From the NCBI GenBank assembly GCA_044228445.1, contig JBGAUV010000001.1, positions 143,827 to 207,826 of the forward strand: DNA of 64,000 nucleotides. The letters run 5' to 3'. Numbering within the stretch: position 1 is the stretch's first letter; the number at the start of each line of letters is the position of its first letter. Below the pieces are notes generated by a model, which made no database searches, was not told the DNA's origin, and saw nothing but the letters and a program-made list of their open reading frames with translations. This DNA comes from Minisyncoccia bacterium. GTDB lineage: Bacteria; Patescibacteriota; Minisyncoccia; Phycocordibacterales; PALSA-1337. The translations under genes and the position numbers were made by a program. This document shows, one piece after another, positions 30,879 to 49,755 of this stretch.

Positions 30879-30953
30879 GGTGGCTATAGTTTAGTGGTAA
30901 AACCTCGGTCTGTGGATCCGAAGTTGTGGGTTCGATTCCCACTAGCCACCCCA
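30879..30953 (+). tRNA. tRNA-His (anticodon GUG) with extra 5' G
   Basis: GGTGGCTATAGTTTAGTGGTAAAACCTCGGTCTGTGGATCCGAAGTTGTGGGTTCGATTCCCACTAGCCACCCCA. Confidence 0.8.
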
Positions 30954-32531: not shown

Positions 32532-32599
32532 AAGTGGGTAATGTTAATTAATAAAGGATGTTGCTGTATTAGCTTCTTCGTGGGCTAATTGCAAGTCCT

Positions 32600-33958
32600 T
32601 TAAAAGGGAACATCGTCGGCTTTTATCTCATCTTCAGCTTTTGCAATCTCTACCCCCGACTCGTACGCACTATTTATTTTTTCAGTTTGCTCAAGCTTTC
32701 TAATGGCTGTCGTAGGGTATGTCAGGAGTTGTCGGCGATCATTCGGGTCCGGCTCTTGAAAGATAAGGCCAGCTGATTCGATGTTTGGTAGATAATCATA
32801 ACGAAGTCTGAACATGCCCAGATTGCCACCATAGACGTGAGCGTATTGTTTGAGCATGTCTTGTCGACTTACACCGACTTTCTTTTCTTCGGGTACAGGA
32901 TCACCGAATTCATCAACTTGGTCCCGATTCCACAGAGGCATAATAATCTGCTGGTAGAACTCGTAGAGATAAGGAGAGATTTCAAGCTCTTGAAAGAGTG
33001 ATATCTTGTCCCAAATTTCAAAACCGGTATCAATATCAAGTTCGGAAGCATACACCGTTGAACCTTCACGCTTACGATGCCAAACATTGAGAAGGGTGAC
33101 GGACTTTATGATGGAATAAATACGTTTGATATCGCGTTGATTTCTCGGTTGCGGATTTTTAATGTGAGCCAGGAATCTGTCTTGGACCATTTTCTCATTT
33201 TCAATAATGATCTCATCGATACCTTCTGCTTTGATTGCTTGTATACGTTTTATAAGAGCCTTACGGAGAGGGTTCTCGTTTAGCTCTTTGTAGTTCTTTT
33301 TGTCTGACTCTTTACGAGAAGATTGATGAATACCGGCAAAGATTTTCTCCTGATTTATTTCAGGGCTAAGAAGTAGGAAACGAGTCATTTCTTGTTGGTC
33401 CATTTTGGCATTGGCTGAGCAGAATATGACAGAAGGGAAACCTCTTACAACAGCCGTCTTTGTTTTGGTCCCACCTTTTTGAGTTTTGTCGGTGATTTTG
33501 TGTCTTGTTTCTTTCTCGTCGTGAGATAGAAGCGATCGAAGTTTTGTTAAGAGAGTTGAGTGGGGCATATCAAGGAAAATGATGATCTTTCTTGATAGGT
33601 CGATGAAGTGTTCGTTCGTCTCTTTTTTGTATACGCCAGTCTCATGCAGAAATGAAGTTGGTGATGCACCGGCTAGCTTCATTACATCCTCTTGAGGAAA
33701 GAGGTGAGATATCTCGAGAGGGATGAAGCTTTTTCCTGAAGATGAGGGTGCGTTAAAACTGATATTGAATTGCGCGTTGTCGGTGTATGCCGCAAGCATG
33801 GCAAGAAACGTGATGATTTTATTACCGTCATCTTTTTTGATAGTAAGGTCCAGCACTTCCCGGACCTGATCGAGAGTGATAGGTTCTGGTGGAGTAATGC
33901 GATCCTTAATTTTGTTGAGTTCCTCGTTGATTGTAAGTGACTCTAGGTTCTGATTCAT
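32600..33958 (-). CDS. P-loop NTPase, putative element replication (primase/helicase-like) protein
   Basis: Walker A FNAPSSSGKSF; size and context as for plasmid/phage D5/P4-type primase-helicases; family not resolved. Confidence 0.4.
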   Translation of the reverse strand: MNQNLESLTINEELNKIKDRITPPEPITLDQVREVLDLTIKKDDGNKIITFLAMLAAYTDNAQFNISFNAPSSSGKSFIPLEISHLFPQEDVMKLAGASPTSFLHETGVYKKETNEHFIDLSRKIIIFLDMPHSTLLTKLRSLLSHDEKETRHKITDKTQKGGTKTKTAVVRGFPSVIFCSANAKMDQQEMTRFLLLSPEINQEKIFAGIHQSSRKESDKKNYKELNENPLRKALIKRIQAIKAEGIDEIIIENEKMVQDRFLAHIKNPQPRNQRDIKRIYSIIKSVTLLNVWHRKREGSTVYASELDIDTGFEIWDKISLFQELEISPYLYEFYQQIIMPLWNRDQVDEFGDPVPEEKKVGVSRQDMLKQYAHVYGGNLGMFRLRYDYLPNIESAGLIFQEPDPNDRRQLLTYPTTAIRKLEQTEKINSAYESGVEIAKAEDEIKADDVPF

Positions 33959-34172
33959 GATTTTGTAATTTATGTGTTAATAAAGGAATGGTTTCGATTC
34001 GTCGCTTTTGGACGAGTTCGTATTCTTCTTTGCTCATCGGCTTGTAGACGAGTTCCATCAAGCGCAAAAGCTGAGTCCCTTTTGCAAGAGCCTCATCTTT
34101 GCTTATATCCACTCCAAAACGAGCCTTGTAGAGCTCTTGGAATTTCTTGATATCTGCGTCCAAAAGTAACAT
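33906..34172 (-). CDS. Small conserved hypothetical protein (paralog of 46550..46804)
   Basis: Shares F.E.Y....G.DI...EA...G..LL.LM..VY.P..KEE pattern with the ORF at 46550. Confidence 0.35.
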   Translation of the reverse strand: MLLLDADIKKFQELYKARFGVDISKDEALAKGTQLLRLMELVYKPMSKEEYELVQKRRIETIPLLTHKLQNHESEPRVTYNQRGTQQN

Positions 34173-34174
34173 GG

Positions 34175-34456
34175 CTATTCCGAGTAAAGTTTGTTCTTCA
34201 GAGCTTTAATGCTGTCGAACATAGAACGAGCCTTCACCTCGACCTCGTCAGTGAAGTATTTGTTGGCGTATTCCTCGATGCGAGGCTCACGCTTGAACAT
34301 AAACAAGGCTTTGCGCGGATTGTCGCGGTCCAGAGATTCAAGTTTGAATCCGAGACACAGCAAAAAACTGGCACAGCCCAAGTCGTATGTCGTAAAGACA
34401 TCTGATGGATCAACGGAATCATCCGAGGACCATCGTGTGGTTTTCTTTTTGATCAT
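34175..34456 (-). CDS. Hypothetical protein (DUF5659-like TYDLGCASFLL motif)
   Basis: VFTTYDLGCASFLLCLGFKLESL resembles a phage-associated small-protein family. Confidence 0.3.
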   Translation of the reverse strand: MIKKKTTRWSSDDSVDPSDVFTTYDLGCASFLLCLGFKLESLDRDNPRKALFMFKREPRIEEYANKYFTDEVEVKARSMFDSIKALKNKLYSE

Positions 34457-34592
34457 GGGTAATCGAATTAATTGGTAATGAATGCTCTAAACAAAAAGCC
34501 AAAGCATTGTGCTTTGACTGTAGTCGTCCGGGAGAAATAAATGGACGGAACGATTATGGGTTTAATGTGGGTTCAATGTGACCCGATAAAAA

Positions 34593-35216
34593 TCATGGCG
34601 CGAGCTTGTATCCGACACCTTTGATGTTCTTAATTATGTCTTTATTTTTAGCTTTCTTTGCTGGCAAAATACCGAGTGCCTCTTTGATGTTACGGATTAC
34701 AAAAGTGAGATTGCGCTTGGTGGTCTTTGAAACAGGTGCACCGAGTATATCCGCATAGGTCACCTGATTATTTTTAGCCATCGCTAGTTTGAGAAGTACC
34801 GCAAACTCCTGGCTCTTAGGATTGAAAATAGCTTGAACTGTATTCAAACGGACCGTAGCAGTAACTTTATCGATAGAAAGAGTGTTGGTTCCGATGGTGA
34901 TAGAGATAAGATCGGTGTCCGGCTTGCTTACCCTTACATGATCACCAAAAGTGCTGATGACCCAGAAACTGACCGCCTTACCAATAACATTAAGGTCCTT
35001 GATGAGATTCTCTTGTTCAAGTTTTTTCAGAACGAGTATCTGTTCGTTTGCAGGGAATGAAGGTTGGTCTTTGAGTTGAAACTTTAAAATACCAGCCGGG
35101 CTTATCTGAGCTCTTTCATGTATCAAATCTTTGATTAATTGTAATTTTTCCCCAGCTTTCATTTTATGGTAATAGTAATATTCCCTTAATCTACTCTTTT
35201 TTAGCAGATTTTCCAA
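34593..35216 (-). CDS. Hypothetical protein
   Basis: ORF only. Confidence 0.3.
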   Translation of the reverse strand: MENLLKKSRLREYYYYHKMKAGEKLQLIKDLIHERAQISPAGILKFQLKDQPSFPANEQILVLKKLEQENLIKDLNVIGKAVSFWVISTFGDHVRVSKPDTDLISITIGTNTLSIDKVTATVRLNTVQAIFNPKSQEFAVLLKLAMAKNNQVTYADILGAPVSKTTKRNLTFVIRNIKEALGILPAKKAKNKDIIKNIKGVGYKLAP

Positions 35217-35273
35217 TATAGTGAGCCTAAGTGTGGGGTAGCTCGGCTTTTTCGTTCTTTGAACATTGTATGG

Positions 35274-35302
35274 TTGACATATACCCCTAGGGGGTATATA
35301 CT
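35274..35302 (+). promoter_or_regulatory. Sigma70-like promoter (TTGACA-17-TATACT) with a CsoR-type GC-rich palindromic operator in the spacer
   Basis: ttgacATATACCCCtagGGGGTATATact; palindrome ATATACCCC/GGGGTATAT resembles the known CsoR operator (TACCC..GGGTA). Confidence 0.7.
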
Positions 35303-35309
35303 ATTGTTT

Positions 35310-35585
35310 ATGAAATACATAGATGAAAAAGGAAAAGAGAAAATTATTAAGCAACTCAAGCGAATTGAGGGGCAGGTTCGCGGTTTACAAAAATTAGTCG
35401 AGAATGATACTTATTGCATTGATGTTATCACTCAAACATCGGCGGTTAAGCAGAGTTTGTCCTCTGTTGAGGATGTATTAATGGAGAATCATTTAGGTCA
35501 CTGTGTTCACCATCAGATGTCTTCTGGTCAAGTTGATAAGGCAAAAGGTGAAGTTCTTAAGGTTTATAAATTAAAAAGAAAATAA
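35310..35585 (+). CDS. csoR: Copper-sensing repressor, CsoR/RcnR family
   Basis: VRGLQKLVENDTYCIDVITQTSAVKQSL...HLGHCVHH (C-H-C metal ligands); the annotated upstream Met would place the operator inside the ORF, so the internal start is used. Confidence 0.8.
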   Translation: MKYIDEKGKEKIIKQLKRIEGQVRGLQKLVENDTYCIDVITQTSAVKQSLSSVEDVLMENHLGHCVHHQMSSGQVDKAKGEVLKVYKLKRK

Positions 35586-35586
35586 T

Positions 35587-36147
35587 ATGAAGATATCAAT
35601 ATATTTAGCATTAGGTTTAGTAGTTGTTGGCGCAATATTGGGCGTTGCTTTTGGATATTATATAACTCCTGATTATAAAGTATCGATGTATGATAAAAAT
35701 ACTATGAGTCTTGGCCAGGCTGACAGAACTTTTGATCTTCGATATGTAAATGCCATGATTTCTCACCATAGAGGTGCCATGCTTCTTGCTGAACAGTTGG
35801 CTAAAAATACTACACGTCCAGAAATGAAGACTTTGGCACAGAATATTCTTGCAGATGAGCCAAAAGCTATCGCTGAACTTTATTCATGGAAAAAGGATTG
35901 GTATGGAGATACTAAAAGCGTGAGAGATCCGATTGTGGCGAATCTAGGTCCAGCAGGAGAGACATTTGATTTACGTTTTCTCAACGCGATCATAGCTCAC
36001 CATGAGGCTGGTATTGTTATGACAAAAGAGACACGACTAAAATCTAGTCGAGCTCAGGTATTGGATAATGCTAATGCGGTCGAGGCATTTCTTTCAAATG
36101 GCCTGCAAACCCTCAAAGGTCTTAGAAGTACTTGGTACAACATTTAA
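35587..36147 (+). CDS. DUF305-family protein (copper-resistance associated)
   Basis: Two repeats of F(D)LRY/FLNAMI.HH..A..M. Confidence 0.8.
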
Positions 36148-36152
36148 TAATC

Positions 36153-38411
36153 ATGACTACACAAATTTTAAAAGTTAAAGGAATGCATTGTGCTAGTTGT
36201 GCTTCAATCATTACCAAGAAGCTCAGTGCAATGCCTCATGTTAAATCGGTCTCGGTAAATTATGGAAATGAAAAAGCTAAGATCGATTATGATGACGCTC
36301 ACATATCGATTGACTCAATGAATGATGAGATAAGTAAGCTCGGATACTCTTTTGTCTCGGAAAATAATCAGGCTAATAGTGGACATGATCATGCTCTCAT
36401 GAAAGCAGATGAACTGGATGAACTTAGAAATAAGACTTCATTTATTATCCCAGTCACAATCACAGTGTTTGCTCTTATGATGTGGGACATTCTTGCACGA
36501 ACAACTGCATGGATGCCAAGTTTGCCAATTCCGATGGCGCTTTTTAATACCATTTCAATGGTTATGGCAACCGTAGCTTTATTTTGGGTTGGCAAACCGT
36601 ATTTGCTTGGCGTAACAAGATTCATAAGACATCGTGTTGCGAACATGGACACCCTCATTGGCCTCGGTACGCTTGTTGCTTATACCTACAGTATCCTTAT
36701 AACACTTTTGCCATCCTTGGGGACTTTATTGCGCGTACCTGAGTATACCTATTTTGACGTAACAATTGTTGTCATCGGTTTTATAACATTAGGCAAATAT
36801 CTAGAAGCACGATCGAAGAAGAAAACTGGAGATGCTATTGAAAAATTACTGAATCTTCAAGCAAAAACAGCCTTAGTTATTCGTAATGGCAAAGAGGTGG
36901 AAGTAAAAATTGATGAAGTTGTTCACGGTGACAGAATTATTATAAAGCCGGGTAGTAAAATCCCGGTTGATGGACTAGTCCTCGAGGGTAGTTCATTTGT
37001 TGATGAATCAATGGTCACTGGTGAACCGATTGCCGTTGAAAAAAAGATTGGTGATAGTGTTGTTGCTGGAACGATTAATACTAGCGGCTCATTTATATTC
37101 GAAGCTAAAAAGGTTGGTAAAGAAACTCTGTTGTCTCAAATTATAAAAATGGTTGAAGATGCACAAGGCAGCAAAGCGCCTATTGAGGCTCTTGCAGATA
37201 AGATATCGGGCATATTTGTTCCTATTGTGCTCATTATTGCTCTCGTTTCTCTCATTGTCTGGCTTGCAGTCGGATCTCAATTCATCGGTTTTTCTCAATC
37301 TGTGTCTCTGGGTATTTTGTCTTTTGTAAGCGTCCTCGTCATTGCTTGTCCTTGTGCTCTTGGTCTTGCAACTCCTACCGCCATTATTGTTGGTGTTGGT
37401 AAAGGCGCTCGAAATGGAATTCTTATCAAAGATGCAGCGTCACTTGAACACTTACATAAGGTAGATACCGTTGTGGTGGACAAAACAGGCACTATTACGC
37501 TAGGCAAGCCAACAGTTGTTGATATTCATAATGAATCCAAATTGAGTAATGATGATTTCATCCGCATTATTGCGTCGCTCGAAAGTAAATCTGAGCACCC
37601 GATTGCACATGCAGTTACTCAATATGCTCATGACAAAAATATAACTTTAGCGAAAGCATTAAGCTTTTCAATTATTCAAGGTAAGGGTCTGAAAGGTGTT
37701 GTGGATGGTACAGAGTATTTTATTGGAAATGCTCAATTGATGAGTGAACTTAAAATTTCTTTCAATCAAAACCAGTTAGACCAGTATACCTCTCAAGGGA
37801 AGACACCCGTTCTTATAAGTACCAAAGACAACTTTCTTGGATTTGTTATGGTCGCAGATGAAGTGAAGAAAGAATCAAAAGACGCAGTGGCGAGTTTGCA
37901 CAAGCTCGGAATAAAAGTAGTTATGCTTACAGGTGACGAAGAGAAAACTGCAAAATACATAGCCTCGCAAGTTGGTATAGACGAAGTGATTGCTCATGTT
38001 TTGCCACAAGACAAAATGGACAAAATTAAGGCGTTACAAGCACAAGGTAAAATCGTGGCCATGGCTGGTGATGGTGTGAATGATGCACCAGCGCTCGCAC
38101 AAGCCAATGTTGGTATTGCTATGGGTACTGGAACTGATGTGGCGATAGAATCAGCAGGCATAACGCTTCTTCATGGTGATATCTCAAAACTGGTAAAGGC
38201 TATTAAACTCTCAAAGATAACTATGCGAGGGATTAAACAAAATCTTTTCTGGGCCTTTATCTACAATATTATTGGCATTCCACTTGCCGCCGGTTTGTTT
38301 TACCCACTCTTCGGTTGGTTGCTAAACCCAATATTCGCAGGCTTTGCCATGGCTATGTCGTCGGTATCGGTTGTATCAAATTCACTTCGTATTAAGGCTA
38401 AAAAATTATAA
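36153..38411 (+). CDS. copA: Copper-translocating P1B-type ATPase
   Basis: N-terminal [11 protein letters not shown]; CPC motif ACPCALG; DKTGTIT; [10 protein letters not shown]. Confidence 0.95.
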
Positions 38412-38416
38412 TTACT

Positions 38417-39448
38417 ATGAACATACAAACACAAAAATACACCTTCCACGTTCACGGCATGCACTGCAATGCATGTGTGCTTATGATAGAGAGCGAGCTT
38501 GGCGATCTGCCAAATATCACTCATGTTAAGTCGAGTCTCAACAATCATTCGGTAGAAGTTATTGGTGATTTTGGAAATAAAACACCAGAACAGATCGCTA
38601 CAGAACTTACGATACCACTCAAATCACACGGATATACTGTATCAGTTGAAAAACAAGTTCATGACAAGAAATGGTCAGACTTTAAGATTGCGATACCCAT
38701 AGCTCTGGGTTTTGCCGTACTCTTTGTTATGTTGCAGAAAATGGGAATCGTAAATCTTGTCAGTGCGGGAAACGTAACTTATGGCACAGCATTTGTAATT
38801 GGTGTTATTGCATCACTTTCGACATGTATGGCGGTTGTTGGTGGTTTAGTTCTCTCAATGTCAGCTACATTTGCTAAAGAGGGAGATAAGGTAAGACCTC
38901 AGCTCATGTTCCATATTGGGAGAATAGTTTCTTTTTTCATTCTCGGTGGTGTTATTGGCGCAATTGGATCAGCATTTACATTAAACACTTCCGCAACATT
39001 TATACTGGGTCTAATTATTGGAATAGTTATGCTTATTCTCGGTATTAATCTTCTTGATACATTCCATTGGGCTAAAAAACTTCAGCCTTCGATGCCAAAG
39101 TTTATTGCAAAACATGCCCACGGTGTTTCAAGATTCAATCATACACTTACTCCGCTTCTTGTCGGTATCGCAACATTCTTCTTGCCATGCGGATTCACTC
39201 AATCAATGCAACTTTATACACTCACAACAGGAAGTTTCCTGCAGGGCGGGCTCACCATGCTTGCATTTGCGCTCGGCACATTACCGGTCCTAGCTCTTAT
39301 TAGCTTCAGTTCATTCAGTATTCAGAAAAGCTCAAAGGCTGGAATCTTCTTCAAAACCGCTGGATTGATAGTCATTATGTTCGCAATATTCAATCTCATT
39401 AATAGCTTGGTGGTGATCGGAATCTTACCTCCAATATTTAATTTTTAG
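38417..39448 (+). CDS. HMA-domain fused to DsbD/CcdA-like thiol-disulfide transporter membrane domain
   Basis: N-terminal HVHGMHCNACV (HMA); membrane domain with FLPCGF and second Cys-containing helix typical of the DsbD_2/CcdA family. Confidence 0.6.
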   Translation: MNIQTQKYTFHVHGMHCNACVLMIESELGDLPNITHVKSSLNNHSVEVIGDFGNKTPEQIATELTIPLKSHGYTVSVEKQVHDKKWSDFKIAIPIALGFAVLFVMLQKMGIVNLVSAGNVTYGTAFVIGVIASLSTCMAVVGGLVLSMSATFAKEGDKVRPQLMFHIGRIVSFFILGGVIGAIGSAFTLNTSATFILGLIIGIVMLILGINLLDTFHWAKKLQPSMPKFIAKHAHGVSRFNHTLTPLLVGIATFFLPCGFTQSMQLYTLTTGSFLQGGLTMLAFALGTLPVLALISFSSFSIQKSSKAGIFFKTAGLIVIMFAIFNLINSLVVIGILPPIFNF

Positions 39449-39461
39449 TATAATCATATTT

Positions 39462-39851
39462 ATGAAAGCAACCGTAATATCAATAATAATTGCAATCGTT
39501 CTCATCGGCGGGGCTTTCATGCTCGCAAATAACAGTGGTGGTACAAATTCTACAGCGAATGCCAACAATGTCAGCATTGTAGATGGTAAACAAATAATCG
39601 AGATTACCGCGCGTGGTGGTTATCAGCCGAGAAATAGTGTAGCCAAAGCGGGCGTACCAACAATAATAAGATTCGAAACCAGTGGAACATTTGATTGTTC
39701 ATCGTCCATTAGGATTCCAAGTTTGAACATCTTCAAATCTCTTCCTCAAACAGGATCTACAGATATTGATGTCGGAACTCAATCAGTTGGTAAACTTGTG
39801 GGTTCCTGCGGAATGGGAATGTATCCTTTTTCAGTTGAATTCAAGAGCTAG
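39462..39851 (+). CDS. Secreted small beta-rich protein with C-terminal Cys/Met cluster (putative copper-binding, cupredoxin-like)
   Basis: N-terminal TM/signal; ...FDCSSS...GSCGMGMYPF; assignment by context in the cop cassette. Confidence 0.3.
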   Translation: MKATVISIIIAIVLIGGAFMLANNSGGTNSTANANNVSIVDGKQIIEITARGGYQPRNSVAKAGVPTIIRFETSGTFDCSSSIRIPSLNIFKSLPQTGSTDIDVGTQSVGKLVGSCGMGMYPFSVEFKS

Positions 39852-39862
39852 ACTTCTTCGAA

Positions 39863-40222
39863 ATGTTCCGGTATGTTCGTCGTGCGATGAAAACATTTGT
39901 AAAAGCGCAAGCGAAAGACGTGAATGGTACGAGCTTCGTTGGATATCTCCAAGCTGATTACGAGCATATGTTCGCGCTTTTCAGCTTTCCTAATGATCGG
40001 ACCCGAGATGATGAGTGGAGATCATCAGACCAAAAGACTCGCTTTGAGTGGGCGTTCAAGATCAAGGGAAAGAAACCAACGGTAGTCACAATTTATGACT
40101 ATAAGGATAATCGGTCGATCGAAGATATTGATATGTGGCATGTGGGCTTAAAGGGGGACCAAGAGAAACTCGAAGTATTTTTCAGAGAACAGCACTTGTT
40201 TGTGATGACCAATCAAAAGTGA
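39863..40222 (+). CDS. Hypothetical protein
   Basis: ORF, GC higher than neighbours; followed by an 18-bp inverted repeat. Confidence 0.3.
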   Translation: MFRYVRRAMKTFVKAQAKDVNGTSFVGYLQADYEHMFALFSFPNDRTRDDEWRSSDQKTRFEWAFKIKGKKPTVVTIYDYKDNRSIEDIDMWHVGLKGDQEKLEVFFREQHLFVMTNQK

Positions 40223-40492: not shown

Positions 40493-41458
40493 ATGAGCCC
40501 AATGACTACACAGCAAGCAATAAAAGAAATACAGAATAAATTTGATGTGAATGCTATTTTTGCATACAGGGTTTATTCTCTTGCTGATAAGAAGAATTTA
40601 TTTGAAGATGTAGCTAAAATTATTGCTGAAAAACCAAAACCTTTTGTGAAGTGGGTTGGCGGTAAGAGACAACTTCTTGCGCAGTTTCGAAAATTAAACT
40701 TATACCCACCCGAGTTATTCGATATAAAGACTGGTAGATATTTTGAACCATTTGTAGGTGGCGGTGCTGTATTTTTTGATTTACTTCCTGAGAAAGGATT
40801 CCTATCTGATTTAAATAAGGAACTCGTTACTACATACAATGTAATTAAAAATGATGTTGAGGGTTTAATTGCATCACTTAAGAAACATAAGACTGATAAG
40901 GAATATTTTTTGAAGGTCCGAGCACAAGATCCAAATAAACTTAGTGACCTAGCTGTTGCATCACGTTTTATATTCCTGAATAGAACCTGTTTCAATGGAA
41001 TGTATCGAGTAAACAGTAAAGGTGGATTCAATGTGCCGTATGGTAAATACACTAATCCTTTGATTTGTGATGAAAGTAATCTCAAGAAAGTTAATAAAGC
41101 ACTTCAAGATATTGAAATAAAACATCAAGATTACAAAGAGGTTTTGAAGAAGGCTAAAAAGGGAGATTTTATATATTTTGACCCACCCTACTATCCAGTA
41201 AGTAAGACTGCATCATTCACATCGTACACAGCAGAATCATTCCTTGATAAAGAACAAATAGAACTTAGAGATACGGTCCTCGAATTACATAAGCGAGGAT
41301 GCTATGTGATGCTATCAAACTCAGACACGCCATTCATAAATAAGATTTATTCAGGTTTCAAAGGAATACGAATTAACAAAGTTGAGGCTGGCCGAGCCAT
41401 TAACTCAAAAGGATCAGGTAGAGGTAAAATCACCGAGGTTCTTGTAACAAATTACTAA
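40493..41458 (+). CDS. Dam-family N6-adenine DNA methyltransferase (DpnM-like, GATC)
   Basis: VKWVGGKRQLL; FEPFVGGGAVFFDL (motif I); IYFDPPYY (DPPY motif IV). Confidence 0.9.
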   Translation: MSPMTTQQAIKEIQNKFDVNAIFAYRVYSLADKKNLFEDVAKIIAEKPKPFVKWVGGKRQLLAQFRKLNLYPPELFDIKTGRYFEPFVGGGAVFFDLLPEKGFLSDLNKELVTTYNVIKNDVEGLIASLKKHKTDKEYFLKVRAQDPNKLSDLAVASRFIFLNRTCFNGMYRVNSKGGFNVPYGKYTNPLICDESNLKKVNKALQDIEIKHQDYKEVLKKAKKGDFIYFDPPYYPVSKTASFTSYTAESFLDKEQIELRDTVLELHKRGCYVMLSNSDTPFINKIYSGFKGIRINKVEAGRAINSKGSGRGKITEVLVTNY

Positions 41459-41460
41459 AT

Positions 41461-42318
41461 ATGAAAAAAGACTTTAATAATTTAATATCAACATTCAAAA
41501 GCTCAATTAAGACTTGGGATTATTTCGTTAATTGGAATAAAGTATTTTCAAATAGTTCAGAATTAGAAATTGCTTTAAATAAGCTTAACTACCTACTCGG
41601 TAAAGAAAACCTAAAAGAGGAATTTAATAAGTTATACAGCTCAAATCCTGATATTGTGAAAGCTTTACCTGTTTTATTAGCGGTCCGAGAAAATAAACTT
41701 GAAGTATTTGATAAGGCTACTAAGAACTCTGAATTCTTTGATTTTTCGGGTAAGGAAAAAGATTCTGATAAATATTTTGAATTTCTAAGTAAATCAGGTC
41801 TTGCAAAATTATTCCAAAAGGATGGAATTAAAAATCTTGTTGATTATGTTATGGGAGTAGAAGTTGGTCTTGATAGTAATGGACGAAAGAATCGAGGTGG
41901 TACTTTGATGGAAGAAATAACGGGTACATTCCTCAATGATTTCTGTAAAAAGAATGGGTTTGAATGTTTATCTCAAGCACGTTCAAGTGCTATAAAAGCT
42001 AAGTGGGGTTTTGATGTAAGGATAGATAAATCTGAGAGAAGTTTTGATTTTGCTATCTATAATGCAAAGAATAAAAAGCTGAAATTGTTTGAGGCTAATT
42101 TTTATAATGGTGGCGGTTCAAAGTTAAAAGCTGTCTGTGGTGAATTCAAAAGCCTTCATGATGAGCTTAAGTCCCAAGGGATAGATTTTATATGGGTAAC
42201 TGATGGACTAGGTTGGAATACAGCCAAAAGACCACTTGAAGAAACATACAATCACAATGAGTACGTATTTAATCTTAATATGCTCGAATCGGGCGTTCTA
42301 AACGAACTAAAATGGTAA
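41461..42318 (+). CDS. Type II restriction endonuclease, DpnII/MboI family (GATC)
   Basis: NLVDYVMGVEVGLDSNGRKNRGGT...FDFAIYN...FEANFYNGGGSKL...IWVTDGLGW closely tracks the DpnII family. Confidence 0.85.
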   Translation: MKKDFNNLISTFKSSIKTWDYFVNWNKVFSNSSELEIALNKLNYLLGKENLKEEFNKLYSSNPDIVKALPVLLAVRENKLEVFDKATKNSEFFDFSGKEKDSDKYFEFLSKSGLAKLFQKDGIKNLVDYVMGVEVGLDSNGRKNRGGTLMEEITGTFLNDFCKKNGFECLSQARSSAIKAKWGFDVRIDKSERSFDFAIYNAKNKKLKLFEANFYNGGGSKLKAVCGEFKSLHDELKSQGIDFIWVTDGLGWNTAKRPLEETYNHNEYVFNLNMLESGVLNELKW

Positions 42319-42324
42319 CCACCC

Positions 42325-43089
42325 ATGGCAATAAAGAAAGCTACAGAATTAAAACTGCATCCGGAAGAATTCGAACTAGAATGTACAACGGTCTGGGCTT
42401 TTCCTCGTCGTGGTAATTGGGCAACTCACACATCAGATTGGCGTGGTAACTGGTCCCCGGAAGTAGCTCGAAACCTCATTCTTCGATACTCAAAAGAAGG
42501 TGATGTTTTACTTGATTCAATGATTGGTGGTGGTACTACTGCTATTGAGGCAAAGATTTTAAATAGAAATATTATTTATTCTGATGTAAATCAGGTGGCG
42601 CTTGATCGCACAAAGAAAGCTCTCAATTTTAAAGTTGATAATAAGGCATGGCAAAGAGGTTTTAAATGGGATTCACGTAATCTATCCAAAATAAAAGATG
42701 AGACTATAGACTTTGTACTCACTCATCCACCATACGTAGATATTATTAAATACAGTGAAGGAAAATTAGTTGATGATCTGTCTAACATAAGTGATATAGA
42801 TGCTTTCTGTGATGAGATGGAAAAAGTAGCAAAAGAGTTTTATAGGGTCCTAAAACCTGGTAAGTTCTGTGCAATTCTCATAGGAGATACTAGACGAAAG
42901 AAAATGTACCAACCGCTCGCCTACAGGGTAATGGACAGATTTCTTAAAGCAGGACTACTTCTCAAGGAAGATATCATTAAGCGACAATTCAATTGTAAGG
43001 CTACTGGATTCTGGGTGACCAAGTCTAAAGAGGCTAACTTCCTACTTATAATGCATGAGCATCTTTTTGTGTTTCAGAAGACAAAGTAA
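42325..43089 (+). CDS. Second N6-adenine DNA methyltransferase of the DpnII-type system (DpnA-like)
   Basis: DSMIGGGTTAIEA (SAM-binding) and LTHPPYVDII (motif IV). Confidence 0.7.
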   Translation: MAIKKATELKLHPEEFELECTTVWAFPRRGNWATHTSDWRGNWSPEVARNLILRYSKEGDVLLDSMIGGGTTAIEAKILNRNIIYSDVNQVALDRTKKALNFKVDNKAWQRGFKWDSRNLSKIKDETIDFVLTHPPYVDIIKYSEGKLVDDLSNISDIDAFCDEMEKVAKEFYRVLKPGKFCAILIGDTRRKKMYQPLAYRVMDRFLKAGLLLKEDIIKRQFNCKATGFWVTKSKEANFLLIMHEHLFVFQKTK

Positions 43090-43116: not shown

Positions 43117-43779
43117 TTGAATGATGTTATTCGTGCTAAAATATGTAGAGTCATTTTTATGGAAACAAAAAATATTAAAAAAATTTATTCTACAAATGAT
43201 TTTTTAATAAGATCTGTTTTGCGCGGTATTTTAGAAAAAAAACGAGAGCAATATAGAAAACAAGGTCATAAGGCAGAAATTTTTGATGAGCTTGGTGTAC
43301 AACATGGGGCAAATAGAGTTGACTACGCTATTGTGAATGGAATCATGTGTGGCTTCGAAATAAAAAGTGATCGCGACACGTTGGACCGTCTACCAGAACA
43401 GGTAAAAGAATTTAGTGAAGTATTTGATGAGTTAACTCTTGTTGTTGGAAAAAAACATCTCTATCACGCAATTCATCAGATACCAGATTGGTGGGGTGTT
43501 TGGCTTGCAAAGGAAGATGGGACTGGCTTAGTGGAGATTCAAGTTATCCGCGAGCCTCAGAAAAATAAGTACCAGGATATTAAATCCATCGCTAGATTGC
43601 TTTGGAAAGAAGAAGCTCTGAGAATTTTAGAAGAACGCAACGAAGCAAAGGGTTTAAGAAATAAATCTAGGGAAATTATCTATACAAGGATTAAAGATGT
43701 CTTTGCTTCAGAATTGGATACTTTCAAAGCAAGAGTAAGTCTTACTTTGACTTCGAGAGAAGGTTGGAGAGTTGATTAA
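43117..43779 (+). CDS. PD-(D/E)xK nuclease-fold protein (sce7726-like)
   Basis: RVDYAIVNG...GFEIKSDRD gives a D...E.K catalytic signature. Confidence 0.45.
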   Translation: MNDVIRAKICRVIFMETKNIKKIYSTNDFLIRSVLRGILEKKREQYRKQGHKAEIFDELGVQHGANRVDYAIVNGIMCGFEIKSDRDTLDRLPEQVKEFSEVFDELTLVVGKKHLYHAIHQIPDWWGVWLAKEDGTGLVEIQVIREPQKNKYQDIKSIARLLWKEEALRILEERNEAKGLRNKSREIIYTRIKDVFASELDTFKARVSLTLTSREGWRVD

Positions 43780-44857
43780 TCACCATTGTGATATGGTGAT
43801 TAATACCTGCTGTTAGCCATGTTTGAGGGCTACCAGTGGTCTTTGCATTCACGTCAGCTTTTTCATGTATATATTCATCTCCAAAACTGAAATCTTTTCC
43901 TTTGAAAAAATTCTGTCCAGCAAGAAGTTGTGCTTGTGCGGGGTACTGTTTATATCCTGCACCTTTTTTATTTTTCAGTCCTTCTCCTCTTAATACTTCC
44001 CAAGTATCTTCATTCGTATAGCGAATGCTAGCGCTCGTGTTAACCCCGACCATATGACCATAATAAATAGGGTGTTGAATCGTATAGTCAGAAAATATAG
44101 GCTTTCTAGTTATTGTTGGATTTCCAAGTATATCCTTCCAAACCTTCCAATCGTATCTTTCGATTTTGTAGTGCCCATGTTTTTCATAGTCGGATAAGTC
44201 TCTGGGAAATGAGCCTCCGGTTAGTATTACAGAACGCCATTTATCAAGATGAGGTATCAATGAAAGTTTGCTTGATACAGCTTGAGATGTCATTTGTTGA
44301 TCTACTATCTTTAAATCGATTAGAAGATCAATGTTGCTATGGTCCAAACCCTCATCTTTTATAAACTCATTTATCTTTGTCGCTGTTTCGTTGTTTAGGT
44401 GTGAATCATCAATGCGAATACACAGACCTCTATCATTAGACTTGGCAAATTTCATAGCGATTTTTTTAGTCTCAGCGTCTGCATCCGTACTTATGGCCGG
44501 AATGATATAAGTAACTGGAATGGAGAACAGATCGGACTGGTTTGCTGTAGTCAGTATCTGATCAAAAGCAGATGCACGTATATCACCATCCAAGAGGTGA
44601 ACATCAACAAAGAATGGTTCTTTGCCCCAGTGCTCAATAATGCCAGATGTTATTTCTGGTAGGTTTCTTAAAAACTTAGTCTTTGAGTCTTCAAGAATTT
44701 TTTTATAGTCAGTTTTATCAATCTTGGGTGGTGGCAAGATGAACTCAAACAATGGTGTAACGTTTGTACGGTCCTTACTGAACAAATGTTTGAGAGCTCG
44801 CGTCTCAGCTGGTCTCCATCGGATTATAGGCACGTAAGATTTTATTGGATTTTTCAT
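43742..44857 (-). CDS. Beta-protein-family (sce7725-like) protein
   Basis: N-terminus KSYVPIIRWRPAETRALKHL matches the Beta_protein family opening (YVPILK.K..E..AL); convergent with and overlapping the sce7726-like gene by 38 nt. Confidence 0.45.
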   Translation of the reverse strand: MKNPIKSYVPIIRWRPAETRALKHLFSKDRTNVTPLFEFILPPPKIDKTDYKKILEDSKTKFLRNLPEITSGIIEHWGKEPFFVDVHLLDGDIRASAFDQILTTANQSDLFSIPVTYIIPAISTDADAETKKIAMKFAKSNDRGLCIRIDDSHLNNETATKINEFIKDEGLDHSNIDLLIDLKIVDQQMTSQAVSSKLSLIPHLDKWRSVILTGGSFPRDLSDYEKHGHYKIERYDWKVWKDILGNPTITRKPIFSDYTIQHPIYYGHMVGVNTSASIRYTNEDTWEVLRGEGLKNKKGAGYKQYPAQAQLLAGQNFFKGKDFSFGDEYIHEKADVNAKTTGSPQTWLTAGINHHITMVINQLSNLLSKSK

Positions 44858-44878: not shown

Positions 44879-46111
44879 TTATTTGCTAGCGAATATATCC
44901 GGGAAGAGCCATTGGACACGAGACTCAGCATTCGTAACTATTTTATTAAGGTAATAATAGTTTTGATGTTTGAAGCGAATGATTCCAGCGACTACGGATA
45001 TGTGTACACCTAACTCATTTGCAAGACTTTGTGCGGCCATAGCTGAAGGTATGACTTTTGCGGGACTGATTTCCCATTTTGCCTTCGGTAGAATAGCTTC
45101 CTCAGCAAGCTCGTCAGCTTCTTCTTCTGTATCTTTAGAACTAAACTCAACACCTTTTTTGTCTTGGAGTTTTTCATCAAAGAACGAATCAAAGTCGCCA
45201 CCATAGTGTTTGATTATGTGTGCCAATTCGTGAAGAAGGGTGAACCAGAAATTATCTAGTCGATCGTGTCTTAGAGTTAGTCCAATTATAGGATTTTCTT
45301 TTTCAGTTAATATTGCGGCACCATCGAGGTGTGTTTTAGGAAGATGGGGTTCAATAACAAGTTTGATACCTACGTCTGCTAACATTTTAATAGCTTTTCT
45401 CGGACCATCTGTGTCTACACTGAGCTTGATTAAAGCTCTCATAAAAGAAATATCTAATGAACCATGTTTATATTTAACAGGAACTTTCATTTTGTCGGCT
45501 TTCTGCACTACACGAATTTGCCAAGCAAGCAAAGCATCTTTATCGGTTAAGATTGCTGATCTGTAGCTTGTTTTTCTTAATAACGCAACAGGTTGAAGTC
45601 TTAATGATCCTAATGAAGTAAATAAGCCATCAAGCAAATCTGATTTTGTATTGTTCTTTAGTGTTTTCTTACCAAAATATCCTCGGTTTTCCATTAACTT
45701 AACAAGTCGAATATCCCAACGCTCATATTTTGAGTCTGGGTTAGCGTCAGTCTTTTGAATTAATACTTTTGCAGGTATACCGAGACCTGTTTCAAGGGCA
45801 CGTATCATCTCGAGAGATAATGGTCGTTTGCCTGAAAGTACTTCTGAGACTCTGCTACGACTACCGATGTAAGGTATTAGATCTGCTGGTTTGAGATCGG
45901 CTTGTTCCATTCGGAAATTGATAGCTTCAATGGGGGTGGGTAGTGATTGGGGGAGTGTCCTAGATTCATATTCTTGAATAAGAGTAGTAAGGAGTGTAAG
46001 TTGTTCACCTTCAACAGATTCTGGATTAGGATCAAGATTCATTAACTCCTCAACTGATTTGAGGGCGTCACGATAGTCTTGTTCGGTTTTTATTACTTTG
46101 ATGTTGTTCAT
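44879..46111 (-). CDS. HigA-like antitoxin: N-terminal HTH fused to DUF955/ImmA-like Zn-peptidase domain
   Basis: HELAHIIKH (HExxH) in the C-terminal half; immediately downstream of the HigB toxin gene. Confidence 0.65.
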   Translation of the reverse strand: MNNIKVIKTEQDYRDALKSVEELMNLDPNPESVEGEQLTLLTTLIQEYESRTLPQSLPTPIEAINFRMEQADLKPADLIPYIGSRSRVSEVLSGKRPLSLEMIRALETGLGIPAKVLIQKTDANPDSKYERWDIRLVKLMENRGYFGKKTLKNNTKSDLLDGLFTSLGSLRLQPVALLRKTSYRSAILTDKDALLAWQIRVVQKADKMKVPVKYKHGSLDISFMRALIKLSVDTDGPRKAIKMLADVGIKLVIEPHLPKTHLDGAAILTEKENPIIGLTLRHDRLDNFWFTLLHELAHIIKHYGGDFDSFFDEKLQDKKGVEFSSKDTEEEADELAEEAILPKAKWEISPAKVIPSAMAAQSLANELGVHISVVAGIIRFKHQNYYYLNKIVTNAESRVQWLFPDIFASK

Positions 46112-46118
46112 ATTTTTG

Positions 46119-46406
46119 CTAACCTATATCCCAGTTATCATATTCCTTGTGTGTGCCGACCTTTTTTATAAGCACAACCTGGTTTTTGTAGTTTATCTGT
46201 ACTAGGACTCGGTACTTATTGTGACAGATGTCGAATATTACATGCTGGTTCTTTACTAAACTTGCCTTCCTATATCTTTCCTTGAGTTCATGAGGGGTTT
46301 GCCACTTAGCATTCTCAACTTCAGCTTCCCACGAGTCTATGTGGGACCTTGCATCGGTGTGCCTCTCTTTGAAATCTTGTGTAATTTTTTTGCCTAGTAA
46401 TTTCAT
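46119..46406 (-). CDS. higB: HigB-family toxin (RelE/ParE superfamily)
   Basis: FDICHNKYRVLVQINYKNQVVLIKKVGTHKEYDNWD. Confidence 0.7.
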   Translation of the reverse strand: MKLLGKKITQDFKERHTDARSHIDSWEAEVENAKWQTPHELKERYRKASLVKNQHVIFDICHNKYRVLVQINYKNQVVLIKKVGTHKEYDNWDIG

Positions 46407-46549
46407 TTGTCACAGAAGGGTCCACTGATACATTAATAAATGTTCCCATAGTGGGAATACTATACCTAGTACGATTGGAAGTCAAGATTCTTTTCATAAT
46501 GGTCCATTTTTGATATAAAAGACCCCATAATTAGCCCCTAAATGCCCCT

Positions 46550-46804
46550 GTGTACGCTTTTCAGGCGAGGTTCGGGGGTAATTACAAACATATGATTTCA
46601 AAACAAGCGTTAGAAGAATTCAAAGAGATTTGGCGAAAGGAAAACCCTGGCCAAGATATCGACGATGCAACTGCAATGGATCAGGCAGTAGCTTTGCTTA
46701 CTCTCATGGATACAGTCTACAGACCAGTGAAGAAAGAATGGCTCGAAAAGTATAAGAGCGAAGTGGTTGAAGAAAATAGTGAAGACAAGGGTAGGGTGAA
46801 ATAA
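46550..46804 (+). CDS. Small conserved hypothetical protein (paralog of 33906..34172); 3' end overlaps a DGR-flanking repeat
   Basis: Shared motif with the other element's small ORF; last 22 nt are one copy of the AGTGAAGACAAGGGTRGGGT repeat. Confidence 0.35.
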   Translation: MYAFQARFGGNYKHMISKQALEEFKEIWRKENPGQDIDDATAMDQAVALLTLMDTVYRPVKKEWLEKYKSEVVEENSEDKGRVK

Positions 46805-47212: not shown

Positions 47213-47926
47213 ATGAATACCATGCTCAGCAAGGCGCTCCGCGAATTCACAACCGGACCGCTCAATCAGCTCATTGTGAACCTCGGTGGCCAGGAAGGCG
47301 ACCAATGGGAAGAGGAACTGAAGAAGTTTCTCCGCAAGGAACCCTGTTGGAGTAACGGACAGGTCGCGCAAGTGACCCAACCGAAAACCAAGCCCTCGAT
47401 CCTCGAGCTCGTCTCGACTGTCGTGGTCTCGGCAACCACCAGCAAGTTCATCGCCAAAGATAAGTTCGTGGTCAACACCAAGCGCAACGCTCCGGTGAAG
47501 ATCTCGGCAGTCTGGGACAACTTCACCAGCTGGTTCCTGTCGGGCGACGGCAAGACCGAAGACCCTATCAGCGAACAGACGCTCCGCTACCACAAATTGC
47601 GGAAGTCTTCAGTTGATGGTCCCATCATTACCGAACTGGGTGGCGAGGAGAAATCCGAAACCACTTTGACGGAAATGTTCTCCTTGATGGAGAAGCAGAA
47701 GAATGGTGAAGACGGTGTTCTCTTGAACAACGGCTACGCCAACATCTTCTACATTCGGGACCAGAATGGTGTGCTTCGCGCGGTCGACGTGTGCTGGTTC
47801 GACGACGGCTGGGACGTCGATGCGTTCTCCGTCGAGAACCCGGGCAGGTGGTCTGATGGCTACCAGGTGTTCTCTCGCAATTCTGTTCTCGAATCCTCGG
47901 AACCTTCGGCTCCGGCGCAAGCCTGA
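47213..47926 (+). CDS. DGR target (variable) protein with C-terminal variable region
   Basis: C-terminus ...GVLRAVDVCWFDDGWDVDAFSVENPGRWSDGYQVFSRN is the VR counterpart of the TR; ~55% GC in an AT-rich genome. Confidence 0.85.
   Translation: MNTMLSKALREFTTGPLNQLIVNLGGQEGDQWEEELKKFLRKEPCWSNGQVAQVTQPKTKPSILELVSTVVVSATTSKFIAKDKFVVNTKRNAPVKISAVWDNFTSWFLSGDGKTEDPISEQTLRYHKLRKSSVDGPIITELGGEEKSETTLTEMFSLMEKQKNGEDGVLLNNGYANIFYIRDQNGVLRAVDVCWFDDGWDVDAFSVENPGRWSDGYQVFSRNSVLESSEPSAPAQA
47768..47877 (+). repeat. DGR variable repeat (VR), 110 bp
   Basis: Aligns to the TR with 14 mismatches, every one at a TR adenine (AAC to GAC/TGC/TTC/GGC/TAC; AAT to GAT/TCT). Confidence 0.9.
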
Positions 47927-48243
47927 TCCTTTGTCCCTTGGACCCTTTGACCCTCGGTCTGCTTCGGCGGATTGGGGGTCAATTTTTTATATTTAAATTT
48001 CTCTTGCTATACTTATTTCCGAAATCATGTGTTACGTGACGGTTACGGCTTTCACGTCATGGTCTTAAGATATTTTTCTCGAGAGTCACACTGGGTATGC
48101 CTTGTGTGAGAGTGGGGAAAGTCTCTTCAAAAAAATAACAAGAATTGGTATATGAGATTAGCGGACTTTGAGGTCCCAGATAAAATTCAGCTGGTCATGG
48201 TTTGGCTGGCGGTGATATAGATGATCTTGTATACGATAACGCT

Positions 48244-48353
48244 GGTGTGCTTCGCGCGGTCAACGTGAACTGGAACGACGACGGCTGGAACGTCAATGCG
48301 AACTCCGTCGAGAACCCGAACAGGTGGAATGATGGCAACCAGGTGTTCTCTCG
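48244..48353 (+). repeat. DGR template repeat (TR), 110 bp
   Basis: Asn-codon-rich (AAC/AAT) copy of the VR; the enclosing ORF 48202..48483 is not considered coding. Confidence 0.9.
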
Positions 48354-48376
48354 AAACTGTTGGTTTTCTCCTCGGC

Positions 48377-48768
48377 TTAAGGTCGGGGAGTTTTTGCTTG
48401 CAAACCCTTCTTCCAACCACCAAGTTGTCGCCCTATTTCCTCAAGTTTTCCGATTAAGTCCGAGTATGTATCAGTTGGAATAATTTTACTTTCCCATGCG
48501 AGTTGTACAAAGAACTTCACAATATCAAGTTTTGTGATGGCTTTGTTTAATATTGGTATTTTGTGTTCAGGTGGGAGATAAGAAAGACAGAATGTGTATT
48601 CAAGTACATCAAGAAAAGCCTGTTCAATTCTGTTTCCAATTCCATACCGCTCGACTTTCGGAAAATCACGATAGATAGAGAGCCAAAAACGATATGTCTC
48701 TTTCGATTTGAGAATTACCTGTGGTAATTCTCGGGGGGGGTAATATGATCCTTATTAGTATGAGTCAT
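48377..48768 (-). CDS. avd: DGR accessory variability determinant (Avd), antisense to TR/RT; frame interrupted at a G8 tract
   Basis: Minus-strand translation ...ELPQVILKSKETYRFWLSIYRDFPKVERYGIGNRIEQAFLDVLEYTF...VKFFVQLAWESKII...IGKLEEIGRQLGGWKKGLQAK is an Avd four-helix bundle; no canonical in-frame start, but the ATG at 48768..48766 joins this frame if the 48733..48740 G8 run were G9. Confidence 0.65.
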
Positions 48769-49755
48769 GAGTATAAGAATATCATATCCATCAAAAATCT
48801 ATGCGATGCGTGGACCGAATTTATATGTGGCAAGAAATCTAAAAAGGACGTTGCTGAATTTTCTCTGAATCTCTCTCAAAACATTTTCAAATTGCACGAG
48901 GAACTGCGAACAAAAACGTATAGACATGGTGCATACGAAGCTTTTTCGATAAGTGATCCGAAACCGAGAAGTATTCACAAGGCTACGGTCCGAGATAGAT
49001 TATTGCATCATGCTATTTACAGGATTTTGTATCCCTATTTTGATAAAAAGTTTATTTATGATTCTTACTCCTGTCGACAGTTCAAAGGAACACATCGAGC
49101 GTTAAATCGGTTCAATGATTTCGTGATGAAAGTATCACAAAGTAATAGCAGGGCATGCTGGGTTTTGAAATGCGATGTAAGAAAGTTTTTCGCATCTATT
49201 GATCATGAAAAGCTTATTGAAATATTCAAGCGACATATTAATGATATGGAAACGATCTGGCTTGTTGAACGCATTGTTGAGAGTTTTCAAAGTACTGGTC
49301 CAGGAAAGGGTTTGCCTTTAGGTAACCTGACCTCGCAACTCTTGGTAAATGTTTACATGAATGAGTTCGACCAGTTTGTGAAGCACAAGCTCAAAGCTAA
49401 GTATTATATTCGGTATGCCGATGACTTCGTTATTATGCACCATGAGAAAGATGTGTTGGTGGATATTCTGCCAAAGGTCCAGAGCTTTCTCAGTGAGCAA
49501 CTAAAGCTGTCTCTTCATCCAGATAAGGTGTTTATAAAGACAGCTTCATCAGGCGTAGATTTTCTGGGCTGGGTCCATTTTCCGCACCATCGAGTGATAC
49601 GGACAACAACAAAAAATCGTATGTTCAAGAAAATCAAAGATTCTCAAGAAAAGCCGGAAGTCGTCCAGTCGTACCTCGGACTTTTGAGTCATGGTAATGG
49701 TTGGAAATTGAAACAGAGAGTTAAGGATAAAATAGTGAAGACAAGGGTGGGGTAA
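48745..49755 (+). CDS. DGR reverse transcriptase
   Basis: RT motifs LKCDVRKFFASIDH, LPLGNLTSQLLVNVYMNEFD (DGR-type [LI]GxxxSQ), YIRYADDFVIM (YxDD), LHPDKVFI, FLGW; start taken at ATG 48745 (or 48760). Confidence 0.9.
   Translation: MILISMSHEYKNIISIKNLCDAWTEFICGKKSKKDVAEFSLNLSQNIFKLHEELRTKTYRHGAYEAFSISDPKPRSIHKATVRDRLLHHAIYRILYPYFDKKFIYDSYSCRQFKGTHRALNRFNDFVMKVSQSNSRACWVLKCDVRKFFASIDHEKLIEIFKRHINDMETIWLVERIVESFQSTGPGKGLPLGNLTSQLLVNVYMNEFDQFVKHKLKAKYYIRYADDFVIMHHEKDVLVDILPKVQSFLSEQLKLSLHPDKVFIKTASSGVDFLGWVHFPHHRVIRTTTKNRMFKKIKDSQEKPEVVQSYLGLLSHGNGWKLKQRVKDKIVKTRVG

Follow-up and report, generated by a model that had tools for sequence, protein, structure and literature searches.

The window analyzed here is a 64,000-nt stretch of a Minisyncoccia bacterium genome (GenBank assembly GCA_044228445.1, contig JBGAUV010000001.1, positions 143,827 to 207,826 of the forward strand), and the subject of this study is a four-gene locus found between its positions 43159 and 46406. 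An earlier note, made from the DNA letters, had pointed to two convergent, overlapping open reading frames (ORFs) at this place and had described them as a candidate two-gene defense module. Both ORFs were found where the note had put them. The smaller one belongs to the cII/sce7726 family, is located on the plus strand at 43159..43779 and encodes a polypeptide of 206 amino acid residues (aa), while its maximal ORF, 43117-43779, encodes 220 aa from a TTG codon. The larger one, on the minus strand at 43742..44857, encodes a Beta protein of 371 aa, which is a homolog of β of phage P4 and corresponds to component C of the defense system PD-λ-2. As the note had stated, the two genes overlap tail to tail by 38 nt (43742..43779). 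The gene for the Beta protein (gene C) is preceded on the minus strand by two further genes. Gene B (44879..46111) encodes a 410-aa polypeptide in which an Xre-type helix-turn-helix (HTH) domain is fused to an M78 (ImmA/IrrE) metallopeptidase domain, and gene A (46119..46406) encodes a HigB-like protein of 95 aa; they correspond to PD-λ-2 B and PD-λ-2 A, respectively. Genes A and B are separated by 7 nt, and genes B and C by 21 nt. Similar to those in the window, genes A, B and C of the Escherichia coli locus L086 are also co-oriented and in this order.

The 220-aa ORF matched the NCBIfam model NF033832 (sce7726_fam) with an E-value of 4.6e-44 and a score of 150.5 bits against a cutoff of 70. 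P4 cII scored 151 bits on the same model, which is about equal to the score of the window protein, and its RefSeq name is "sce7726 family protein." The PADLOC model "cll," built for cII as it is found in gop-β-cII of P4, also matched the window protein (1.8e-26), and an identical public protein carries the precomputed Pfam family PF26915 (Phage_P4_cII). NCBIfam, PADLOC and PF26915 all agree with the sce7726-like assignment that had been made for the smaller protein. Its true start is probably the ATG at 43159 rather than the TTG at 43117, because the polypeptide lengths of its homologs ranged from 204 to 214 aa and because gene callers begin a 100% identical protein (P0121) at this ATG.

Among the 76 cII homologs compared, which include P4 cII, residues E44, R53, E67, K69, S70 and D73 were invariant, and D55 was kept in 75 of them (206-aa numbering). 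In the window, the codon of D55 is at 43321-43323 and those of E67-x-K69 are at 43357-43365. Given the conservation of E44, E67 and K69 in all homologs and of D55 in all but one, the D...ExK nuclease signature that had been noticed in this protein is genuine. The structural model of cII had a predicted local distance difference test score (pLDDT) of 72, and its core residues 43-61 were poorly defined. The model showed an α-β-β-α-β order in which D55 and E67-x-K69 were placed on adjacent strands (residues 55-59 and 62-68, respectively). A Foldseek search of this model against BFVD, which holds models of viral proteins, returned matches to proteins that are annotated as MmcB-like DNA repair proteins or nucleases. 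With an E...D...ExK motif on a β-strand core, cII is predicted to be a PD-(D/E)xK nuclease.

The 371-aa ORF spanned the Pfam family PF14350 (Beta_protein) from end to end (E-value 1.9e-62; score 212 bits, cutoff 27), so that the Beta_protein assignment of the earlier note stood. Matches as strong as those of the two ORFs to their families are well outside what chance would give. Its second label for this protein, "sce7725-like," however, had to be given up. The NCBIfam model NF033831 (sce7725_fam) gave no match to the window Beta even at E ≤ 10, and Beta of the Rac prophages matched it merely over 35 N-terminal residues (E 0.099). From the sce7725/sce7726 cassette, the pair contains the sce7726 member, but Beta is not the sce7725 partner. 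Among the PADLOC models, the window Beta matched PD-Lambda-2_C (2.3e-53) and, weakly, "beta" (4e-13). It was 20% identical to P4 β, and the invariant residues are common to both proteins. The identity between the window Beta and Beta of E. coli PD-λ-2 was 25%.

The AlphaFold2 model of Beta (pLDDT 86.6, predicted template modeling score 0.89) displayed an alternating β/α pattern, and its fold is predicted to be a divergent (β/α)8 triosephosphate isomerase (TIM) barrel. Closer structural relatives were sought, and generic TIM barrels were all that was returned. In the Foldseek search against the Protein Data Bank (PDB), the matches were weak, with template modeling scores (TM-scores) of 0.3–0.39, and included de novo designed TIM barrels, xylose-isomerase-like proteins, proteins of the AP-endonuclease-2 type, sugar epimerases and type I dehydroquinase. 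No relative of Beta was found by sequence search of the PDB, and the HHpred results for C in the supplement of Vassallo et al. contained nothing beyond PF14350. The conserved residues D85, D181, D220 and D257 are located at or just past the C-terminal ends of strands in the model. Conserved aspartates in this position are the usual pattern of TIM-barrel active sites, and an enzymatic role of Beta is therefore plausible from the model. Other conserved residues of Beta are R148, R208, R234, H262 and H354-H355.

The product of gene A matched the Pfam family HigB_toxin (PF09907; 3.1e-27) and the PADLOC model PD-Lambda-2_A (1.4e-35), and its GTHxEY motif was at least 90% conserved over 53 homologous loci. 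The product of gene B matched PD-Lambda-2_B (1.1e-136) over residues 1-398 and, more weakly, capP (2.5e-09) and capH (1e-03). In the Pfam search, Peptidase_M78 was above the cutoff (7e-06) and HTH_3 was sub-threshold. The HExxH motif of B is HELAH, encoded at 45218-45232, of which H, E and H were invariant in 53 of 53 loci. B of the window was 39% identical to B of E. coli PD-λ-2. Different from type II HigBA, in which HigA is a small protein with an HTH domain only, the partner of the HigB-like protein in the window has 410 aa and an M78 peptidase domain. In addition, the roles known from type II HigBA are inverted in E. coli PD-λ-2, where B is toxic and A is protective. B resembles the switches ImmR/ImmA and CapH/CapP, which consist of an HTH repressor and an M78 protease, in that it has both an Xre-type HTH and an M78 peptidase with the HExxH motif, and a conserved operator-like site is located at its own promoter. 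However, ImmR/ImmA and CapH/CapP keep the two activities apart, whereas B of the window fuses them and is preceded by a HigB-like gene. Moreover, toxicity of B and its rescue by A, as in E. coli, are not known for CapH/CapP.

PD-λ-2 of E. coli ECOR42 is an abortive-infection defense against λvir in which C is required, B is toxic alone and is rescued by A, and C has been characterized as "related to a P4 phage antitoxin" (PMC9519451). The window contains the same components A, B and C as PD-λ-2 (Vassallo et al., 2022; "PD-Lambda-2" in PADLOC and DefenseFinder), in the same order and orientation and in a tight co-oriented operon. Different from PD-λ-2 of the E. coli lineage, which is without cII, however, the window and its relatives (63 loci in all) have a gene for a nuclease-like protein that overlaps C at its 3′ end. 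The gop-β-cII system of P4 ("Rst_gop_beta_cll"; Ghisotti, 1990; Rousset et al., 2022) confers protection from λ and P1, and its Gop is toxic without β (PMC9122126). Cell death by gop-β-cII is triggered by the phage gene orf184 (preprint). This system shares with the window the homologous convergent genes for β and cII as well as the catalytic-type residues. The gop toxin gene upstream of β, however, is not present in the window, where the genes for the HigB-like and Xre-M78 proteins are found instead, and a tblastn search with P4 Gop gave no match in the window region or in 74 homologous genome loci. Thus, by its components, the window locus joins a PD-λ-2 front end with a P4-type Beta/cII core and is a hybrid architectural variant of validated systems. 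No description of this combination was found in the literature searched, and no mechanistic work was found in the literature on sce7726, PF14350 and gop_beta_cll. The window locus and its more than 60 relatives show that PD-λ-2 and gop-β-cII share a Beta/cII core; a 2024 survey placed the two systems in unrelated classes, and databases also separate them.

Taken with their neighbors, the two convergent genes probably form the β-cII core of a locus of four genes, namely the PD-λ-2 operon and the convergent gene for the cII/sce7726 nuclease-like protein, that would act against phages by abortive infection. The role in phage defense that the earlier note had proposed for the pair is well grounded, but its description of the pair as essentially uncharacterized is not, as the homologous PD-λ-2 and gop-β-cII have both been validated (PMC9519451; PMC9122126).

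To assess the distribution of the locus, peptide patterns were derived from Beta proteins similar to that of the window and scanned against one genome per species, which identified 74 genome loci. They were from Patescibacteria, Acidobacteriota, Chloroflexota, Bacteroidota, Atribacterota, Gammaproteobacteria and other phyla. All four genes, i.e., those for the HigB-like protein, the Xre-M78 protein, Beta and the convergent cII, were found in 63 loci, a count that takes in the window and three near-identical public contigs. About 10 of the remaining loci were interrupted by a contig end. The recurrence of A-B-C together with cII in these 63 loci speaks against the idea that the pair is a module that stands alone. 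In the 53 loci that passed the length filters of the co-divergence test, the pairwise distances of the four proteins were correlated with r = 0.63–0.84. The correlation of cII with B (0.81) was about as high as that of Beta with B (0.84). Given their correlated divergence, the four genes are evidently inherited as a unit.

Parts of this unit were also found separately. HigB and Xre-M78 genes without Beta and cII were found on plasmids of Limnohabitans and Acinetobacter and in about 12 viral contigs. Genes for Beta and cII without A and B were found in Rac prophages, in Gordonia phages and on a Rhodococcus plasmid. Occurrence of each half alone would be expected if the window contained two independent neighbors, namely a HigB/HigA-like type II toxin–antitoxin pair (A and B) beside a self-sufficient Beta/cII module. 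This explanation is distinctly unlikely, however, given that the same order and tight spacing were found in 63 loci of many phyla with correlated divergences, that the gaps in the window operon measure just 7 and 21 nt, and that defense by E. coli PD-λ-2 needs Beta together with A and B.

The two families had been said to travel together as a cassette, and our results from this study bear this out, as convergent genes for Beta and cII were found in P4, in prophages and phages, on plasmids and in the genome loci. For instance, tblastn searches of phage and plasmid records identified convergent, overlapping pairs in the E. coli prophage Rac-SA53, in Gordonia phages Powerball and DumpsterDude and in mycobacteriophage Mycofy1. 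Such pairs were also present on plasmids of Rhodococcus, Agrobacterium, Rhizobium and Sinorhizobium. Among 5426 complete E. coli genomes, 93 contained the Rac-type pair. Similar to the window pair, the pairs of the Rac-type prophages and actinophages consist of convergent, overlapping Beta and sce7726-family genes, but they lack the A/B front end. The identities between their proteins and those of the window were 20–29% for Beta and 36–43% for cII.

The 3′–3′ overlap of the two genes was present in 74 of 76 Beta/cII pairs, with a median length of 50 nt and a range of 26 to 137 nt. Of the two pairs without overlap, one is from a locus whose Beta gene is disrupted, and the other is that of P4, whose genes are set apart. 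In the annotation of P4, gop has the same orientation as β, toward which cII is directed from the other side, and a terminator for cII is placed in the 27-nt gap between the stop codons of β and cII, whereas the genes of the window overlap. In 73 of the 74 overlapping pairs, the length of the overlap was 3n+2, for which the chance expectation is one in three. Therefore, the relative reading frame of the two genes is fixed. A conserved C-terminal SREGWR motif of cII faces the variable tail of Beta in the overlap. In lineages other than that of E. coli, loci with the PD-λ-2 architecture usually include this conserved gene for a predicted nuclease in obligatory convergent overlap. When a "cll" match is found as an orphan beside PD-Lambda-2_C, we suggest that it be annotated as part of the system.

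The cII stop codon of the window is spanned by a perfect palindrome at 43775..43804 with arms of 12 bp, ATTAATCACCAT-N6-ATGGTGATTAAT, which lies inside the Beta codons for INHHITMVIN. As a candidate for a conserved terminator, this palindrome was rejected. A significant hairpin at the cII stop codon was found in 4 of 76 loci, the median z-score being -0.17, and the palindrome is therefore lineage-specific. In P4, mutation of the cII terminator is said to impair expression of β; this was not used as evidence here.

Upstream of gene A, a consensus scan identified a promoter-like site for the A-B-C operon on the minus strand at 46457..46485 (TTGACT, a 17-nt spacer and TAGTAT). Promoter-like sites in this region were not above chance, and its position is therefore the sole argument for this one. 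Directly after the -10-like TAGTAT hexamer, at 46443..46457 of the same strand, is an operator-like palindrome, TTCCCA-CTA-TGGGAA. It is predicted to be the binding site of the N-terminal Xre HTH of B, for which the candidate operator DNA is TTCCCACTATGGGAA. Of 63 loci, 39 had the motif TTCC(C/T)-N1-9-(A/G)GGAA within the 150 nt that precede gene A, at 4.1 hits/kb compared with 0.04–0.07 hits/kb elsewhere in the loci, which is an enrichment of about 80-fold. The E. coli PD-λ-2 locus L086 also has a related palindrome in front of its gene A. The half-sites TTCCC/GGGAA upstream of the HigB-like gene are conserved across many phyla. No description of this operator palindrome for PD-λ-2 was found in the literature searched. 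The upstream regions of A and cII were also compared for shared words. The longest shared word averaged 8.15 nt within a locus and 7.84 nt in cross-locus controls, and shared words were rejected as a link between the two regions. The simplest reading is that the A-B-C operon is autoregulated by the HTH of B and that cII is under a separate promoter. The obligatory 3′ overlap is the sole physical link between the two transcription units.

Several results weigh against the assignment of all four genes to one anti-phage system with a nuclease in it. First, the locus is known here from its sequence alone. Second, the patterns used for the scan were taken from window-like Beta proteins, and the share of four-gene loci is therefore biased upward. 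Third, support for the nuclease fold of cII is moderate. Sequence-level proof failed in Pfam and the PDB. Nothing relevant was returned when 30 members of the cII family were scanned with Pfam at E ≤ 10 or when PDB chain sequences were searched by sequence and by profile, and Foldseek with the cII model gave no match in the PDB at E ≤ 0.001; the matches in BFVD alone were supportive. Fourth, none of the 63 loci had the operator motif upstream of cII, so that no sign of regulation of this gene by B was seen. Fifth, in two metagenome-assembled loci (L061 6001-7689 and L071 6001-7312), Beta is frameshifted or N-terminally truncated while cII is intact.

The last point concerns E. coli PD-λ-2 itself. 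It was located with a 41-nt probe for the A/B junction, joined from two published primers, which matched one complete genome, NZ_CP180604.1. With the Rac Beta/cII DNA as query, Rac-type pairs alone were returned. The locus of NZ_CP180604.1 (L086) contains the genes for HigB, ImmA/IrrE and Beta, followed by a gap of 251 nt and a convergent ORF of 317 aa, but no cII. Similarly, no cII was found in viral contigs of this lineage, even in those with at least 2 kb of downstream sequence. Moreover, the published PD-λ-2 clone ended 396 bp past C and yet was protective; therefore, A, B and C suffice against λvir in the E. coli lineage. These E. coli data show that cII is not indispensable. The 317-aa ORF (L086 8625-9578) holds the position of cII. 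It had no family match, its hhalign probability against cII was 0.1%, and it was not found in related viral contigs.

Other genes were found in front of Beta as well. In Agrobacterium fabrum and one viral contig, a PDC-M63A-like gene and a PD-Lambda-2_B-like gene are followed by Beta and cII. A plasmid of Agrobacterium tumefaciens carries a split version of B, with separate genes for the HTH and the ImmA/IrrE peptidase, followed by a Beta-like ORF and a convergent sce7726 gene. Judged from these sequences, the front end of Beta/cII systems is modular. A wider reading, which is tentative and on balance doubtful, would make Beta/cII the ancient portable core of an abortive-infection superfamily. 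In this superfamily, a TIM-barrel enzyme or adaptor would be combined with a PD-(D/E)xK nuclease, transcript collision or antisense pairing would serve as the switch, different front ends would have been added, and E. coli PD-λ-2 would have been derived by loss of cII. If this were true, infection would unleash the nuclease by causing a collapse or change in the transcription of the Beta operon. The front ends would then comprise Gop, HigB-like plus Xre-M78, PDC-M63A-like plus Xre-M78, and split HTH plus ImmA, and PD-λ-2 and gop-β-cII would be one family.

The presence of Beta and cII by themselves on mobile elements would also fit a different arrangement, in which the two form a toxin–antitoxin or restriction–modification-like pair with cII as the toxic nuclease and Beta as its enzymatic or binding antidote, while A and B merely regulate. 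Convergent gene pairs are common in restriction–modification systems. The nuclease signature of cII is intact, Beta resembles an enzyme, and Beta neutralizes the toxin Gop in P4. However, a toxic cII would be hard to reconcile with L061 and L071, which keep an intact cII beside a damaged Beta; the damage reflects either decay of the system or assembly error, and it is relevant to the question of cII toxicity in the absence of Beta. Furthermore, cII-like genes without Beta are present in many Listeria and Bacillus phages, and the E. coli PD-λ-2 lineage has Beta but no cII. With these observations on both sides, a toxic cII restrained by Beta is unlikely.

For the four-gene anti-phage locus, what is known of the homologs suggests how it may work. 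By analogy with E. coli PD-λ-2 and P4 gop-β-cII, the locus would kill or arrest infected cells, the toxicity of B would be neutralized by A and Beta would be required for defense; in P4, Beta restrains Gop. Through its HTH, B would act on the TTCCCA-N3-TGGGAA operator as the repressor of the operon, and the peptidase domain of B would be the switch or the toxic activity, as in ImmR/ImmA and CapH/CapP, with A restraining B. For the steps of Beta and cII, we hypothesize the following. Beta, which is common to both validated systems, would probably be a metal-dependent TIM-barrel enzyme or an adaptor, by which a phage cue is translated into release of the toxic activity. cII would be an accessory DNA-cleaving effector with its own promoter, whose expression may be tied inversely to transcription of the operon by polymerase collision or antisense pairing across the overlap. 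The phylum-spanning operator, the nuclease residues and the overlap provide handles on the function of the Beta TIM barrel.

The locus is part of a region at about 31–50 kb of the window with 35–44% GC, compared with about 30% in the flanks. The region starts with a tRNA-His gene (region 30880-40222), which is followed by a large serine recombinase gene on the minus strand (30942-32531). Its higher GC content, the tRNA-His gene and the serine recombinase suggest an integrated island. An att repeat for this island was looked for, and none was found. Copper/heavy-metal genes are also within 30880-40222, encoding DUF305, a P-type ATPase, DsbD_2/HMA and a cupredoxin. They are followed at 40493-43089 by a complete DpnII-type restriction–modification cassette, which consists of genes for a Dam-family methyltransferase, a DpnII endonuclease and a second N6/N4 methyltransferase. 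This cassette shares its strand with cII, immediately upstream of which it is located; the distance from its end is 27 nt to TTG 43117 and 69 nt to ATG 43159. The region fits a mobile island loaded with defense and accessory genes. To this extent the defense-island setting described in the earlier note held; the separate HigBA that it had placed downstream, however, is identical with A and B of PD-λ-2.

The location in a tRNA-His-associated island with a serine recombinase raises the question of whether the locus serves the mobile element instead, by addiction or stabilization or by lysogeny control, as the P4 name cII might imply. Its homologs are found on prophages, plasmids and satellites, and HigAB plus Beta has been read as an island stabilizer in Acinetobacter (PMC7643966). 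Both homologous systems, however, are anti-phage when cloned away from their elements, and a role limited to the element is very improbable. Stabilization and defense are not mutually exclusive.

Beyond gene A, the locus is adjoined by a diversity-generating retroelement at 47213-49755. It comprises a target ORF (47213-47926) with a variable repeat (47767-47880), a template repeat (48243-48356) and a reverse transcriptase gene (48721-49755), and 15 of 15 differences between template and variable repeats were at template adenines. The retroelement cassette is bracketed by a 25-nt direct repeat whose copies, at 46773-46797 and 49729-49753, are 96% identical. They are located at the 3′ ends of an 84-aa ORF (46550-46804) and of the reverse transcriptase gene, respectively, and the repeat may be a scar of insertion or duplication.

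Elsewhere in the window, ARAGORN called a 95-nt tRNA-Thr(TGT) at 60272-60366, for which the Rfam tRNA model was silent at its gathering threshold; the call could be false, or the tRNA could be atypical or contain an intron. Finally, the Rfam LOOT RNA (RF03000) was matched at 8461-8578 with 76 bits against a gathering score of 46.4, beside a GC-rich stretch (50–55% GC) at 5–8 kb.

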